From a virus (lineage: Duplodnaviria; Heunggongvirae; Uroviricota; Caudoviricetes): 8,520 nt of DNA. The translations under genes and the position numbers were made by a program. Below the pieces are notes generated by a model, which did no database searches, was not told where the DNA came from, and saw nothing but the letters and a program-made list of their open reading frames with translations. Positions 1,766 through 8,520 of the stretch are shown here, piece after piece; position 1 is the stretch's first letter; every line of letters begins with the position of its first letter. The stretch is taken from IMG/VR virus record IMGVR_UViG_2563367003_000003; one strand, given 5' to 3'.

Positions 1766-2017
1766 TTGCCCGCACCTCATAAAACAGGTGCCGGGTTTGA
1801 CAGCCTGAACAATCAAGCGGGTAGCCGCTATATTTCCGTAATGCGGTTTTTTTGTGCCCGTAATTCCACCCTACCCCGTATTATGGCGGGGCGTAATGGG
1901 GGAGCCTTTGCGCTCGCTGGTTCCTTGATTGCCAGTCTGTCAACCCTGTTACGTCCCGCCACCATGTTTGACAGCGTGCTGGCGAGACTCCGTAAACTTA
2001 ATCAAGGAGCCGCCAAA

Positions 2018-3189: not shown

Positions 3190-5865
3190 ATGAAATCTGA
3201 CATCAGAAAAGAGATTATTAACCGTCTTATCCGTGATTACAACTTCAAAGAAGAAAATAACTACCTCCGGTATGGTGTTTGTCCGCAATGTGGAAAGAAA
3301 GAGTTGTTTACCAGCCTTGAAAGGCCGTACATCGTACACTGCGGGCGTGAAAATAAATGCGGTACAGACCTGCTGACTAAAGAACTTTACCCGGATGTGT
3401 TTTCATCATGGTCAGATCGCTATATCAGTACGAAAGATGAACCATACGCAGCGGCGGCAGCTTATCTCCTGGAGGCACGCAATATTGCTACAGAGCCACT
3501 GAAGGGGGTATTTACCCAGGAGCGATACAAAGACAAGGAAAGCGGCGAACAGGCCGCTACTGTGCGTTTTACGCTGGCTGACGACGTGTGGTGGGAGCGC
3601 ATCATAGACCGACCGGAACGCTTCGAACGGAAGGCGAATTTTTCCGGCAGCTACAAGGGGTTGTGGTGGGCTTATCCGGGAGCAGATTTAAGCAAGGCCA
3701 AAGAAATCTGGATTTGTGAGGGTATCTTTGATGCCATCAGCCTTAACCAGAATGGCATTGCGGCCGTTTCTGTCATGTCTGCCGTGAGCTACCCTGATAA
3801 GGCACTGGAAGAGCTGGCGAAGCTGTGCGGGGATAATCCCCGTCCGGTTATCGTGTGGGCGCTGGATAACGGGCGTGCAGGTGAGCGTTACGCGAAAAAA
3901 CATGCAGAACGCAGCGCCGAAGACGGCTGGAGAACGGCAGCGGCGTTGCCAGGTAAAAACAACAATAAACGCGACTGGAATGATTTACACATCGCCGGAA
4001 AGCTGCGTGGCCATGATGTGAAAAGATACCGTTATTACGGTGATTTATTGCTGGCGAAATCTCCAAGAGATAAGGCACTAATAATGTTTTCCTTTCGTGA
4101 GCGGAAGGAATTTCATTTTACTTTTGATAACCGTGTTTTCTGGTTCAAGCTGGACATTGAGCGCCATATGAAGGCTGTTGAGCGTGTCATTAATGAGCGA
4201 AATGTTGATGAGGATGAAGCGCGCAAAATTGCACTTAAGGAATCTGGTGCAGTAAAAGAAATCGCAAACTGTAACCCAGCGCCGCTTTATTACATTCGAA
4301 ATAATGACACGGATGAAGCATGGTATTACTTCCGTGTTACGTTCCCGGATGGTGCTACGGTGAAAAACACCTTTACATCAGGACAATTAACATCCTCATC
4401 TGAATTTAAAAAACGCCTGTTACACGTGGCAAAAGGCGGTATTTATACCGGAACGACTACGCAGCTTGACGCATTAATAAAAAATGACCTTCCCGCAATA
4501 AAAGAGGTTATTGGTCAGGATTTTATCGGATACAACAAGGCGATTGGGGCATGGCTGTTTAATGATATTGCTGTTTACAAGGGAAAAACTTATGAAATCA
4601 ATGACGAGGATTATTTTGAAATTGATGGCATAAACGCAAAACCATTAAGCGAAAAACCCACATTACAGATTAACTACAAAAAACCGGATGAATTTACAGC
4701 GTCCTGGGTGGAAGATCTCTGGCTGGCTTTTGGTGAAAAGGGAATTATTACCCTGGCTTTCTGGTTGGGCTCCCTGTTCAGCGAACAAATCCGGGATAAA
4801 GAAGAATCCTTCCCTTTCCTTGAAGTCACCGGAGAGCCCGGAACGGGCAAATCAACATTGATTGATTTTTGCTGGCGGCTGTGCGGTCGTGACAACTACG
4901 AAGGAGTTGATCCAACCAAAGGATCAGAGGCGGGCTGGAAGCGCACCTTTGGACAGGTCGCCGGATTGCCTGTTGTTCTGATTGAAGCAGACCGGGGAGA
5001 CAATGCGCAAAAAAGAGGTGCGTTTGACTTCGATAACCTGAAAAGCCTCTATAACGGTGGCGGTATCGGTGTTCGTGGGGTTAAGGCCAACAATAACAAC
5101 ACCTATGACCCGGATTTTAAGGGCGCTATCGTGATTGCGCAGAATGCGCGGGTAAATGCCTCGCCGGCAATTATTGAGCGCCTGATACGCATATACACCG
5201 ATAAAAAACGCCATTCACCTGATACCCGACTGGCGGCGAGACGGCTGGAACTCTACCCCGTCGAGAAGGTATCGGGGTTTATTCACCGGGCGGTAAGTCA
5301 GGAACGGGCGATTATGCAAACGTTCCTGGAAGTATCGCCCGCTGAAACGGAACGCCTTTGCGGATGCGAAAATATTCGCCATCCCCGTATTGCCAAAAAT
5401 CACGCGCAACTTATCGCGCTGGTCAGGGCGCTGAAATGCGTTATCGATATCCCGGATGAATGGCTTGATGCCACATGTCTGGAACTGGAACAAATGGCAA
5501 CGGCGCAGGTTAAAGCGGCGGCGGCTGACTTGCCAGAAGTGATGGAGTTCTGGGAGGCGTTCGACTTCCTGGACGGCATAACAAAATACGGTGTAAACCA
5601 TTACGGCAAGGGATGCCGCGAAGGGATTGCTATCAGTATTCCGCAACTGGCACAGGCTGCCGCCATTCACCGCGTGGAGATCCGAACCGATCGCGAAATG
5701 ATTGAGTTGCTCGGAGCTGGGCGTTCCCGACCGTTGACAGGCCGTAAAACCATTCGTAGTGAGGTGTCCAGACAGGCAAACGCCGGAAAAGGAGTAGCCG
5801 AAGCCAGAGAGCCGGAAGTACTGAAATGCCGGATATTCAGTTACAAGGAGGTCACCGAAAAATGA
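3190..5865 (+). CDS. Bifunctional DNA primase/helicase, P4 alpha-like replication protein (zinc ribbon + TOPRIM-type primase + P-loop NTPase)
   Basis: Track ORF 3166-5865 begins with GTG inside the hairpin; the first ATG at 3190 has SD GGAG (3178-3181). Motifs: zinc ribbon CPQCG...HCGRENKCG (about nt 3279-3363), TOPRIM-like EGIFDAISL (about 3715-3744) with ALDNGRAG (about 3859-3882), Walker A GEPGTGKST (about 4832-4858), Walker B-like VVLIEAD (about 4970-4990). Architecture matches P4-family primase/helicases. Confidence 0.85.
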   Translation: MKSDIRKEIINRLIRDYNFKEENNYLRYGVCPQCGKKELFTSLERPYIVHCGRENKCGTDLLTKELYPDVFSSWSDRYISTKDEPYAAAAAYLLEARNIATEPLKGVFTQERYKDKESGEQAATVRFTLADDVWWERIIDRPERFERKANFSGSYKGLWWAYPGADLSKAKEIWICEGIFDAISLNQNGIAAVSVMSAVSYPDKALEELAKLCGDNPRPVIVWALDNGRAGERYAKKHAERSAEDGWRTAAALPGKNNNKRDWNDLHIAGKLRGHDVKRYRYYGDLLLAKSPRDKALIMFSFRERKEFHFTFDNRVFWFKLDIERHMKAVERVINERNVDEDEARKIALKESGAVKEIANCNPAPLYYIRNNDTDEAWYYFRVTFPDGATVKNTFTSGQLTSSSEFKKRLLHVAKGGIYTGTTTQLDALIKNDLPAIKEVIGQDFIGYNKAIGAWLFNDIAVYKGKTYEINDEDYFEIDGINAKPLSEKPTLQINYKKPDEFTASWVEDLWLAFGEKGIITLAFWLGSLFSEQIRDKEESFPFLEVTGEPGTGKSTLIDFCWRLCGRDNYEGVDPTKGSEAGWKRTFGQVAGLPVVLIEADRGDNAQKRGAFDFDNLKSLYNGGGIGVRGVKANNNNTYDPDFKGAIVIAQNARVNASPAIIERLIRIYTDKKRHSPDTRLAARRLELYPVEKVSGFIHRAVSQERAIMQTFLEVSPAETERLCGCENIRHPRIAKNHAQLIALVRALKCVIDIPDEWLDATCLELEQMATAQVKAAAADLPEVMEFWEAFDFLDGITKYGVNHYGKGCREGIAISIPQLAQAAAIHRVEIRTDREMIELLGAGRSRPLTGRKTIRSEVSRQANAGKGVAEAREPEVLKCRIFSYKEVTEK

Positions 5866-6872
5866 CGATAAAGAAGTTGGTTAACGGTAAGTTTGCTGTG
5901 GACGTGCGGCCTGCAGGAGCAGAAGGAAAAAGATTCAGGCGGCGATTTGATACTCGTGGTGAAGCAGTGGCGTATGAACGCCATGTTCTGATGCACTACC
6001 ACAACAAAGAGTGGGTCGAAAAGCCCATTGAACGTAAAGCGTTAAGCGATCTTCTGGAATTATGGTGGGCGTATCATGGCAAGAATCATCGTTATGGAGC
6101 GATGACGCGGGTAAGAATTGAAGCTGTTCTTTGTGATATGCGCGAACTTGGGATAAACAGAAGCGATCATTTAACCCGGAAAAATATTATCAGATATCGA
6201 CTTAAATTAATGAATCGTGGAATTAAACAGTCAACAGTAAATCGCTATTGTGCCATGATGAGCGGTTTCTTTGAAAAGCTGATTGATGCTGAAGAGTTTG
6301 CGGGTAATAACCCGTTTCGCGAGATACGTAAGTTAAACATTAATCAGCCAGAAATGGCTTATCTTGCACATGATGATATTTCCAGGCTAACCGCGCTTTT
6401 ATCTGGCGATAATCTTAAGGCTGTATTGTTGTGTCTGGCTACAGGTGGGCGCTGGGGTGAGATTGCCAATATTAAAGGTGAGCACATAATTGGCGGAAAG
6501 GTTATTTTTATGAAGACAAAGAACGGCTCAAGGCGGGTCGTTCCAATCGCTAAAGATCTTGAATCACTGGTCAAAGTAAAGGCGACCGGAAGATTAATGA
6601 AACCTAATTATGCAACTGTCAGAAGTGCAATAAGGACTGTGCGGCCTGATTTACCCGTCGGTCAGTCTGTGCATGTTTTACGGCATACCTTTGCCACTCA
6701 CTTTATGATTAATGGTGGAAACATCATCACATTGCAGAAAATACTAGGACACAGCACTATTCAGCAGACGATGACTTACGCGCATTTTGCACCGGATTAC
6801 CTGGCAGATGCCATGAGATTTAACCCGGTAGCCAACATAGTGATCACCGAAGAAAAAGAGCCAGCAGAGTAA
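5862..6872 (+). CDS. int: Tyrosine recombinase, P2-Int-family integrase, 336 aa
   Basis: N-terminus MTIKKLVNGKFAVDVRPAGAEGKRFRRRFDTRGEAVAYE and the catalytic region (GGRWGEIANIK; HVLRHTFATHFMINGGNIITLQKILGH; TMTYAHFAPDYL with the tyrosine nucleophile) closely parallel P2 Int as I recall it. Near-consensus SD AAGGAGGT (5845-5852). The ATG at 5862 overlaps the primase TGA (5863-5865) as ATGA. The track start at 5826 is an upstream in-frame extension. Confidence 0.9.
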   Translation: MTIKKLVNGKFAVDVRPAGAEGKRFRRRFDTRGEAVAYERHVLMHYHNKEWVEKPIERKALSDLLELWWAYHGKNHRYGAMTRVRIEAVLCDMRELGINRSDHLTRKNIIRYRLKLMNRGIKQSTVNRYCAMMSGFFEKLIDAEEFAGNNPFREIRKLNINQPEMAYLAHDDISRLTALLSGDNLKAVLLCLATGGRWGEIANIKGEHIIGGKVIFMKTKNGSRRVVPIAKDLESLVKVKATGRLMKPNYATVRSAIRTVRPDLPVGQSVHVLRHTFATHFMINGGNIITLQKILGHSTIQQTMTYAHFAPDYLADAMRFNPVANIVITEEKEPAE

Positions 6873-7120: not shown

Positions 7121-7440
7121 GGGGGGGGATGCGCAAAGCGGTTACAACGGTTACAAATTTAAAATCACTTATTTTTGCATTATATATCAATACATTATAA
7201 CTGGTCGGATGAGTTACAAAAGCGGTTACAACGCGGTTACATGTAACCGTTTTGTTAGGTTACAGGCGGTTACAGGTTAAGTTTTTAATTGATTGATAAT
7301 AAAGTGCTTTTTGAAACCTGTAACCGTTGTAACCGCAGTGTAACCGCAAAGCGGTTACAAACAATATCCATTAAAATCATGCTGTTAAGTGGTGTTTTTG
7401 ACTGTTGTAACCGTTGTAACCGCTTTGCGCACCCCCCACC
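7121..7440. repeat. Iteron array of GGTTACA/TGTAACC heptamers around an AT-rich core, bounded by 36-bp near-perfect inverted repeats; candidate replication origin and/or att arm-site region
   Basis: Forward GGTTACA at 7140, 7149, 7224, 7235, 7258, 7268, 7353 (plus partial GTTACA at 7213); reverse TGTAACC at 7242, 7319, 7328, 7339, 7406, 7415. Left repeat 7121-7156 (GGGGGGGGATGCGCAAAGCGGTTACAACGGTTACAA) matches the reverse complement of 7405-7440 at 34 of 36 positions, with the inner 26 perfect. Internal palindromes GGTTACATGTAACC (7235-7248) and TGTAACCGCAAAGCGGTTACA (7339-7359). AT-rich segments at 7157-7210 and 7275-7318. Confidence 0.8.
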
Positions 7441-7663
7441 GGATTATGAGGCAGAGCCCCAAAACAACTGGCCTGACCTCTAACAAAAATGCAACATCAA
7501 TCATTGATTTTTTGGAGCTGTCAGTCACGGGGAGTTGCCCTGTTGTCTGGCAGAAAAATGAAGTATGTACATGCGCGGCGGGGATGGTAAAAAACGTAAT
7601 ACACGCGGCGCAGTTGCCATAAAAAATCTCTCAAAAGCACTCTTTTTGACGCTATTGTTCATC

Positions 7664-7690
7664 TGCACAAAAGTGCACAAATTTGCACAA
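7664..7690. promoter_or_regulatory. Three helically phased direct repeats of TGCACAA (10-bp spacing); candidate regulator-binding array
   Basis: TGCACAA at 7664-7670, 7674-7680 and 7684-7690; a fourth copy at 7756-7762. TTGACG (7646-7651) sits upstream and TAGAGT (7696-7701) downstream. Lies in a non-coding region upstream of the ogr-like gene. Confidence 0.4.
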
Positions 7691-8013
7691 TTTTTTAGAG
7701 TAACTTTTTGCCCATCCGGCCCAGTACTGGCGCGCCCGGAGGGCGATTTCGTGCGTGCACAAAAAACGGTGAGTTTTTCGCGCGCAGGTGACGGGGGAAC
7801 AGCACGCGTTTCAGGGGGTAAATTACATTTTCGCTAAAGGCTGCGGGAATGCCCCGACCGGGTTAGTTTTATCGCCAGCCAGAGCCGTTCTTACGGCAAG
7901 AGAGAACTGATACGGGGAATGTGACGAGTGAGCATGGGAACGGCGCGCCCGTGCGTAATACGCGGCGACTGCTGCGGGTTTATTTGATACAGCCAGAGGG
8001 GGGCGGCAGAAGA

Positions 8014-8053
8014 TATAATAGGTTAAATTTCACACCAGTAAGAGGAGCGTGAT
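8014..8053 (+). promoter_or_regulatory. Promoter -10 element and RBS of the ogr-like gene
   Basis: Perfect TATAAT at 8014-8019. No good -35 at 17 +/- 1 bp (TTGATA at 7984-7989 is too far), which would fit an activator-dependent or extended promoter. SD AGGAG (8043-8047) 6 nt before the ATG at 8054. Confidence 0.4.
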
Positions 8054-8236
8054 ATGTCTTTCCCTTGCCCGGCCTGTGGCGCTTCAGCCCGCACCCGTGG
8101 TCGTTCGTTGGAAGAACACGAACAAAACATCTACAGAACGTATTACCAGTGCAATAATATTGAGTGTGGGGCTTGTTTTTGTACGCTTGAGTCGTTTGTA
8201 CGCATTACTAAGCGCAGGAAGTCGAAAACTTCATAG
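8054..8236 (+). CDS. ogr: Ogr/Delta-family zinc-finger late-gene transcriptional activator, 60 aa
   Basis: C-x2-C ... C-x4-C arrangement (FPCPACGASARTRG...YYQCNNIECGACF...ESFVR) aligns with the P2 Ogr / P4 Delta zinc-finger pattern as I recall it. Good SD and -10. The overlapping track ORF 8049-8381 in another frame is rejected. Confidence 0.8.
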   Translation: MSFPCPACGASARTRGRSLEEHEQNIYRTYYQCNNIECGACFCTLESFVRITKRRKSKTS

Positions 8237-8250
8237 TGATTTGTATAACA

Positions 8251-8273
8251 CAGCCAGCGAGTGTGACCGGCTG
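8251..8273. terminator. Possible bidirectional terminator between the convergent ogr-like and minus-strand genes
   Basis: CAGCCAG (8251-8257) pairs with CCGGCTG (8267-8273) with one mismatch. Flanked by A/T-rich sequence on both sides (TTGTATAACA upstream, CGTTATTTCTGTATT downstream). Imperfect stem, so low confidence. Confidence 0.3.
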
Positions 8274-8286
8274 CGTTATTTCTGTA

Positions 8287-8520
8287 TTACGTCGTGTGGT
8301 TCTGGTCATTTGCCCAGGCCCACACATCCCCCGCTACATTGCGCCCGTTGCAGTCTTCTTCCTGCGTTTCCCCGGCCTTAATTCCCTGACTGATAAACAT
8401 TCTGACGCACTGGGAGTAGTTCATCTCTCTGTCCTGACATATCTGATTTATTTTATGGTCGATTTCGTGCGGGATACGAATACAGCGTAATACGCATCGC
8501 ATTTTCTTTTGTTTTTTCAT
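8287..8520 (-). CDS. Hypothetical protein, possibly a ribbon-helix-helix-like DNA-binding protein; 5' end at the window edge and possibly truncated
   Basis: Minus-strand ORF with stop at 8287-8289 and an ATG exactly at 8518-8520, so it may extend beyond the window. Segment RIPHEIDHKINQICQDREMNYSQCVRMFISQGI has a strand-helix-helix pattern reminiscent of CopG/Arc-type regulators; this is a structural guess, not a motif match. Convergent with the ogr-like gene. Confidence 0.4.
   Translation of the reverse strand: MKKQKKMRCVLRCIRIPHEIDHKINQICQDREMNYSQCVRMFISQGIKAGETQEEDCNGRNVAGDVWAWANDQNHTT

Follow-up and report, generated by a model that had tools for sequence, protein, structure and literature searches.

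Phage P2 encodes Ogr, a 72-aa protein for which the role of late activator, the consensus dyad TGT-N12-ACA and the zinc-ligand motif CX2CX22CX4C have been described (PMC3931495). The P2 ogr gene stands alone, with a promoter of its own that combines a good -10 with a poor -35. Satellite P4 encodes an Ogr homologue, Delta (166 aa), made of two domains in tandem and expected to act on satellite and helper late promoters; its gene adjoins cos and sid, inside a sid-delta-psu operon with a dyad-bearing late promoter. As for P4-like satellites at large, seven core components have been listed, namely int, psu, delta, sid, alpA, epsilon and alpha (PMC8628076, PMC10085698). The closest phage relatives of the protein studied here are the 86-aa activators of Xuanwuvirus P88 and Gemsvirus 500465-2, whose genes occupy the classic D-ogr-attP-int position.

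The window analysed here, a stretch of DNA of 8,520 nucleotides, harbours a stand-alone ogr/Delta-family gene together with the features listed below. The island to which it belongs was compared with related ones: eight diverged islands from five genera, Escherichia, Salmonella, Klebsiella, Erwinia and Pectobacterium, share a module that consists of cos, ogr, a small RHH gene, a gene for a protein of ~240 aa and a long P2-family capsid gene. We propose that the ogr product is an Ogr-family activator of the satellite's own capsid operon, with cross-talk with the helper in both directions and gating of the module by the RHH protein through palindromes, and we give this reading a probability of about two in three.

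5862-6872, plus strand: second integrase, of the P88/P2 type (Pfam Int_N and Phage_integrase matches, RefSeq annotation, homology to P88 DNA)
7140-7421, no strand: array of 13 GGTTACA/TGTAACC iterons in both orientations (repeat families D1 and D3; count compared with shuffles)
7664-7823, no strand: cos block (160-bp homology to P88 and Gemsvirus; aligned with the P4 cos junction)
7953-7963, no strand: GTAWTAC palindrome copy GCGTAATACGC, a candidate operator upstream of the ogr -10
8014-8019, plus strand: -10 hexamer TATAAT of the putative ogr promoter (read from the sequence; position kept in 7/8 islands, hexamer invariant in E. coli alleles)
8040-8047, plus strand: strong Shine-Dalgarno sequence AAGAGGAG, 6 nt 5' of the ATG (read from the sequence)
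8054-8236, plus strand: ogr/Delta-family gene, an ATG-initiated ORF of 60 aa (Pfam match, structural model, allele comparison)
8245-8279, no strand: hairpin between the convergent ogr and RHH genes (MFE -12 kcal/mol, z = -0.67)
8287-8520, minus strand: gene for an RHH-type small regulator of 77 aa (conserved family), convergent with ogr and divergent from the capsid operon

The ogr gene and its product

Translation of the ORF confirms the 60-aa product with a KRRKSKTS C-terminal tail that had been described in an earlier note on this DNA (MSFPCPACGASARTRGRSLEEHEQNIYRTYYQCNNIECGACFCTLESFVRITKRRKSKTS). The family assignment made there also holds when checked against the HMM: the protein matches Pfam Ogr_Delta PF04606 with 43.4 bits for a cut-off of 26.3 (E 3.3e-11), as a single domain that spans residues 5-51 and profile positions 2-46 of 47. 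PHROG 603, 'transcriptional regulator', is matched as well (E 2.8e-10), and RefSeq holds the same protein as WP_001756195.1, under the label 'ogr/Delta-like zinc finger family protein'. Its cysteines C5, C8, C33 and C38 form a CX2CX24CX4C pattern, in which C5, C33 and C38 are invariant and C8 is nearly so among the 26-34 relatives aligned. Judged on its sequence, it is a real, intact, single-domain zinc-ribbon member of the Ogr/Delta family.

Among phage proteins, the P88 and Gemsvirus activators are 51% identical to the 60-aa protein (47-49% over the whole alignment) and share its X24 cysteine spacing. P2 Ogr belongs to the same Pfam family and likewise has a single zinc-ribbon domain with four cysteines, but it is phage- rather than satellite-encoded, has an X22 spacing and is 37% identical over 49 residues. 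The AF2 model of the 60-aa protein (pLDDT 89.6) is a three-stranded zinc ribbon, with strands at residues 11-19, 26-33 and 41-47 and a fold that is finished by residue 47. Its closest solved counterpart is the N-terminal DNA-binding zinc ribbon of NrdR (PDB 9gex, 7p37; TM 0.65-0.70, rmsd 1.1-1.9 A), which is also three-stranded. This is a match of fold only: identity is 24-27%, there is no significant sequence relation (E 0.46), and NrdR is a repressor that comprises an ATP-cone domain. A sequence search of the PDB detected no solved structure of an Ogr/Delta-family member, only generic zinc fingers. As a member of the Ogr/Delta family, the 60-aa protein is predicted to bind zinc and specific DNA sequences and to activate transcription via the alpha subunit of RNA polymerase. 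The RefSeq record of phage P88 (L024) leaves its 86-aa ogr homologue, at 34479-34736, unannotated.

The earlier note drew attention to the shortness of the protein relative to P2 Ogr. Among its relatives, this length is nothing special. While a word-indexed search with the 60-aa protein yielded near-identical copies only, an exhaustive homologue search gave 45 representatives at E <= 1e-3, with lengths of 47-108 aa apart from a few long multi-domain matches. Forms of 60-69 aa recur among them, and three of the other islands carry 64-aa Ogr forms. When these relatives are aligned, conservation extends over the core, up to residue 50 or so, and beyond it the tail is free to vary.

Missing from the 60-aa protein is the C-terminal H-x-LP tail found in P2 Ogr, P88/Gemsvirus Ogr and P4 Delta; the tail comprises 20 residues in P2 Ogr and ~30 residues in the P88-like activators (GVHSSEGIPWHxLPASH...). 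This absence would fit a dominant-negative form, whose zinc ribbon occupies late-promoter dyads without activating them and thereby damps helper late transcription to the satellite's advantage. In principle, the satellite capsid promoter, with its helper-type element, could respond to the Ogr of the helper. Nevertheless, we consider interference unlikely. C-terminally truncated P2 Ogr reportedly keeps its activity, conservation within the family is lowest in the tail, and the same short format is common among relatives. Furthermore, sister islands with Ogr forms of 64-98 aa retain the same module, and the satellite-encoded member that serves as a precedent, P4 Delta, acts as an activator (PMC8628076).

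Another explanation is that ogr is a truncated, functionless relic in a defective, decaying island. The protein is indeed shorter than its phage homologues, and the module is found in just 57 of 5426 E. coli genomes. In addition, some database copies of the gene are frameshifted (P0005, 108 aa) or truncated (P0003 and P0004, 42-44 aa), and some islands are thus decaying. However, the differences among five E. coli alleles consist of five synonymous, one stop-to-stop and two conservative changes, which preserve the length of the ORF and the position of the stop, and the proportion of variable sites is 4.4% in the ORF versus 12.7% upstream. As synonymous changes dominate and the length is unchanged in these five alleles, the gene is under purifying selection and is maintained. 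The zinc ligands and the Shine-Dalgarno sequence are all intact, and so are the att repeats, cos, primase, integrases and capsid gene of the island; moreover, the module is conserved across genera. That the gene is a mere remnant appears very improbable.

The host island, its cos and its integrases

Three complete E. coli genomes have a chromosomal locus that is identical to the window or differs from it by one base. In ETEC1747 (locus L001), the element sits between gcd and hpt and is bounded by 32-bp direct repeats (L001 13595-13626 and 26557-26588), for a size of ~13 kb. The right att repeat covers the hpt start codon, the island being inserted at the 5' end of hpt. In the ogr region, window coordinates correspond to L001 coordinates minus 14999, owing to one indel. 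GTGTATCAATnnGTGTATCAATAT is repeated near each end of the island (L001 13751 and 26480) and may represent an integrase arm site. The IMG/VR contigs all come from isolate genomes and say nothing on packaging.

In L001, the island starts with an arm-type integrase, a 350-aa protein, an AlpA-like protein, an Icd-like region and several small genes. A toprim primase, the second integrase, the iteron array, cos, ogr and the opposite-strand RHH gene follow, and the last part comprises a 236-aa gene, a 423-aa P2-family capsid gene and a PemK/MazE pair. The arm-type integrase, which stands at the island end, is 22% identical to P4 Int (E 2e-17), the AlpA-like protein is 32% identical to P4 ORF88 (E 8e-12), and the toprim/P-loop primase resembles P4 alpha only locally. 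No portal, terminase or tail genes are found in the gene list of the island. Because it is bounded by att repeats and has a helper-type cos but no tail or terminase genes, the element is a phage satellite with a P4-related, though distantly so, backbone, as the earlier note had supposed of the carrier of ogr.

Like P4-like satellites, the island has an integrase, an AlpA-type regulator and a primase. In contrast, Psu is lacking, with a capsid protein encoded where P4 has Psu, and delta is replaced by a separate single-domain ogr. Since the psu-delta-sid operon is absent, the element is not a canonical P4-like satellite (PMC8628076, PMC10085698). As for epsilon, the small ORFs of the window gave no Pfam match to it; sister island L019 has genes of the P4 epsilon type (PF25738 'Derepression') and of the DUF5375/P4 ORF106 family. 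Within the 'Icd-like' ORF, Rfam matches to isrK and C4 antisense RNA (window 1772-1853 and 1879-1966, plus strand) suggest an RNA-based immunity region like P4 CI or P1 c4.

The iteron array lies 3' of the primase and second integrase genes. The window contains 14 copies of the iteron for 0.95 expected, a number that none of 200 shuffles reached. In P4, the alpha-binding repeats are located directly 3' of alpha. By this analogy, the array probably serves as a replication origin or crr-like region to which the primase binds.

The cos block is 81% identical to P88 10903-11062 and 77% identical to Gemsvirus 133-299, both of which adjoin the portal gene, and it is kept at 72-80% identity in 8/8 islands. 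Within it, GGTGACGGGGGAACAGCAC at 7787-7805 aligns with the P2/P4 cohesive end GGCGAGGCGGGGAAAGCAC. This 19-mer by itself does not identify cos, as its 14/19 matches are not significant relative to a background of 13/19; the support comes from the homology of the 160-bp block to P88. Of 5426 E. coli genomes, 1173 have a P88-type cos block, with identities mostly of 77-82%, and compatible helpers are thus common. A 90-aa ORF at window 7565-7837 (plus strand), annotated as 'hypothetical protein' in RefSeq, overlaps the cos block; it has no Pfam or PHROG match and is probably not a gene.

The second integrase gene, whose start overlaps the primase stop codon, has 72.8% nucleotide identity to the P88 integrase over 974 bp. 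It is found in some sister islands and missing from others, and no P88-like attP was detected beside it. The island thus resembles P88-like Peduoviridae in its cos and integrase DNA as well as in the cysteine spacing of its Ogr and in the late-promoter element described below. As stated in the earlier note, the orientation of ogr relative to int differs from that of P2: P2 ogr converges on int across attP, whereas the satellite ogr is co-directional with the adjacent int. Nevertheless, that adjacent int is the second, P88-like one (73% at the nucleotide level), and the iterons and cos lie between the two genes.

The shared module and its promoters

The module sits 3' of the primase gene, with variable cargo between them. 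Its proteins are only 28-50% identical between islands, and the island Ogr_Delta proteins have 55-98 aa. In one E. coli island (L021 4612-5114), ogr is found 3' of the small regulator gene on the same strand, in an apparent operon; elsewhere the two genes are convergent.

The operon of the 236-aa and 423-aa genes is located just past the right end of the window (L001 23685-25666). The 423-aa P2-family capsid protein is 35-39% identical to phage copies and has an N-terminal extension of ~100 residues. It belongs to a clade of long forms (about 390-500 aa) from E. coli, Salmonella, Klebsiella, Erwinia and Pectobacterium, and a genome-collection scan with it returned a single close copy. From these comparisons, this satellite seems to bring a capsid protein of its own. 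The alignment of the ~240-aa family with P4 Sid is colinear but weak (hhalign E 4e-4, probability 34%), and neither Pfam nor PHROG has a family for this protein. We also considered the gpO scaffold and Psu for this protein, and it shows no similarity to either.

Between the RHH and ~240-aa genes, a dyad [T/A][G/C]T-N12-A[C/G]A followed by AC is present at an aligned position in 8/8 islands. This pattern came from the cross-island alignment and was relaxed after the sequences had been seen. In the present island, the dyad is TGTGAGCGTATTACGAGA (TGT-N12-AGA, imperfect), at L001 23591-23608, ~70 bp past the window end and ~355 bp 3' of the ogr stop. Its right half-site is AGA instead of ACA, while the left half-site is TCT in four islands and AGT in one. 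The dyad is then followed by AC(A)AAA and is centred about 55.5 bp 5' of the predicted start. The capsid-operon promoter is devoid of a -35, and a weak A-rich -10-like hexamer is found in the islands 44-50 nt to the right of the dyad centre, AAAAAT in this one. The exact TGT-N12-ACA sequence is not found near ogr or the capsid operon, with 8 occurrences for 9.7 expected in the 38.5 kb.

This layout is close to those of known late promoters. The presumed target is -35-less with a dyad centred near -55, as for P2 Ogr; the P2 record marks the activator site and the transcription starts of PO and PP, and in PO 56 nt separate the dyad centre from the TSS, with GAAACT as the corresponding hexamer. 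The distance from the dyad centre to the ATG is 82 nt in P4 Psid versus 80-113 nt in the islands. Furthermore, P88 has TCT-N12-ACAAC(A)AAA at both of the late-operon regions examined, namely the divergent region between portal/terminase and scaffold/capsid genes, and 5' of the gpD-like gene; two further matches in the P88 genome correspond to a shorter pattern without the AAAA tail. The Gemsvirus P/O region carries the P88-type element as well, and the Klebsiella-type islands match this Gemsvirus/P88 element almost base for base. As the dyad matches the P88-type late-promoter element, the satellite capsid operon would thus have a late promoter of the helper type.

In the mechanism that we propose, ogr is a stand-alone gene, located between the satellite cos and the convergent RHH gene and transcribed from its own promoter. 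On the model of P2 Ogr and P4 Delta, the 60-aa protein would bind the dyad at the late promoter and recruit RNA polymerase. The activated promoter would drive the production of the Sid-like ~240-aa protein and of the long P2-family major capsid protein of the satellite. In addition, the satellite Ogr might act on helper late operons, and the helper Ogr on the satellite capsid operon. Such cross-activation is expected because P88-like late promoters share the dyad element and the island has a P88-type cos. Activation of the target promoter, the cross-talk and the role of the RHH protein are all predictions from sequence comparisons. The proposal in the earlier note that proteins of this kind let satellites turn on helper capsid genes is plausible, but it is incomplete, as a likely target lies closer at hand, in the Sid-like/capsid operon of the satellite itself. 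The arrangement also differs from that of P4 Delta in that the satellite ogr is single-domain and monocistronic, lacks a dyad and has an RHH gene as its partner.

As for the promoter of ogr itself, the earlier note had pointed to a perfect TATAAT without a -35 and had suggested activator dependence or extended-promoter control. Both sequence features are indeed there. The best -35 candidate, CAGCCA at 7990-7995, matches TTGACA at 3/6 positions with an 18-bp spacer, no hexamer located 16-18 bp 5' of TATAAT exceeds 3/6, and a consensus promoter scan called no sigma-70 promoter at ogr. Exact TATAAT hexamers are not more numerous in the window than expected by chance (9 versus 6.9 +/- 2.5). The one upstream of ogr is credible as its -10 because the position is conserved across islands and the hexamer is invariant among alleles: a good -10 is found 32-47 nt 5' of the ogr start codon in 7/8 diverged islands, in the forms TATAAT, GATAAT (twice), CATAAT (twice), TAGAAT and TAATAT/TATGAT.

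The modes of control suggested for this promoter fared less well. No TG extension of the -10 was found upstream of ogr in any of the eight islands. Motif search and cross-island alignment revealed no dyad or recognisable activator site at the ogr promoter; a TGT-N12-ACA sequence seen by eye 5' of ogr in L019 is not present in the other islands and was discarded as a general feature. Four related islands, of the Klebsiella/Erwinia/Pectobacterium group, have a -35 at 17 bp (TTGTCA, 5/6; TTGCCG, 4/6; TTGTTG, 3/6, twice). In the P2 record, the ogr promoter is annotated with TTG alone as the -35, and the P88 ogr promoter, with TAGAAT as its -10, is likewise without a -35. As the P2 and P88 ogr promoters share it, a weak -35 is a recurrent trait of ogr promoters that is not diagnostic, and it does not support activator dependence. 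On the other side of the gene, the ogr-RHH spacer is invariant among alleles. A bidirectional terminator after ogr is possible but weak, as the hairpin found there is no better than those of shuffled sequences.

Clustered palindromes and the RHH gene

The RHH gene adjoins ogr in 8/8 islands. Its product belongs to a family with the motif SVLRxxRIPHELD...YSxCV and matches CopG_antitoxin weakly (E 0.04). Besides the palindrome upstream of the ogr -10, with GTAWTAC at 7955, clustered GTAWTAC copies are present at 7596, 8140, 8284 and 8487; the window contains seven copies for 0.77 expected, five of them within 7596-8493. In L001, 9 of the 16 copies fall inside 1.2 kb of the 38.5 kb, in a cluster that runs from upstream of ogr to the Shine-Dalgarno sequence of the capsid operon, and the palindromes are ~38-fold enriched around ogr and the capsid promoter. 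The GTAWTAC core is found in Salmonella islands, GTCWGAC in an E. coli variant and a TGTTATACA-like palindrome in the Klebsiella group. The RHH strand varies in step with the palindrome (VLRCIRI, VLRTLRI, VLRAVRI, IRRTIRI). The GTAWTAC palindromes are candidate operators, probably of the RHH protein, which would gate the module through these clustered 9-bp sites.

Alternatively, the Ogr-like protein rather than the RHH protein might bind the 9-bp palindromes and regulate the module and its own promoter, with the N12 dyad served by the helper Ogr alone. The palindromes are TGT-N3-ACA-like in several islands, which echoes Ogr half-sites, and in addition to their enrichment around ogr and the capsid promoter one copy lies 5' of the ogr -10. 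Moreover, the Ogr subclade varies in step with the palindrome type as much as the RHH protein does, so that the RHH protein is no more than the likelier of two candidate palindrome binders. RHH proteins typically bind short repeated operators that overlap their own promoters. By inspection, one of the palindromes overlaps the likely -10 of the RHH gene. Furthermore, in L016 the change of the RHH strand from VLR to IRR goes together with an A-to-C change in the palindrome. Lastly, no such cluster was seen in those late regions of P88 that were inspected by eye, although P88 encodes the closest Ogr homologue. On balance, this alternative seems quite unlikely, and the RHH protein remains our preferred candidate.

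Taken alone, ogr is one more Ogr/Delta member, already annotated automatically, ordinary for its family and of little consequence. Its value is that of an entry point to a module found in at least five enterobacterial genera. The architecture of the satellite may be undescribed: in the limited literature that we searched, we found no description of published satellites with this module. It is tempting, although the odds are somewhat against it, to see here an undescribed lineage of satellites with a P4-related backbone, in which sid-delta-psu has been swapped for an Ogr/RHH/Sid-like/own-capsid module behind a P88-like promoter and cos. If this is true, the satellite would assemble a shell from its own capsid protein and rely on a P2-family helper for nothing but the packaging machinery and tails, which would make it the myovirus-helper counterpart of capsid-forming PICIs. 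A functional module would represent a second way to parasitise P2-family helpers, in which the satellite provides the capsid protein itself, from a late promoter that mimics those of the helper; P4, by contrast, does no more than reshape the capsid of its helper. The predicted pairs of regulators and sites, Ogr with the dyad and the RHH protein with the palindrome, are compact and lend themselves to direct tests.

The islands also differ in their cargo. Between the primase and cos, we found HicAB and a MazE-like gene in L012 (7031-7987) and an AIPR abortive-infection gene in L020 (2274-4040). The cargo 3' of the capsid gene comprises GmrSD and a type I restriction subunit in L019 (8109-13308) and PemK/MazE in L001 (25710-26302). 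By its content, the sister-island cargo resembles the defence hotspots of P4-like satellites.
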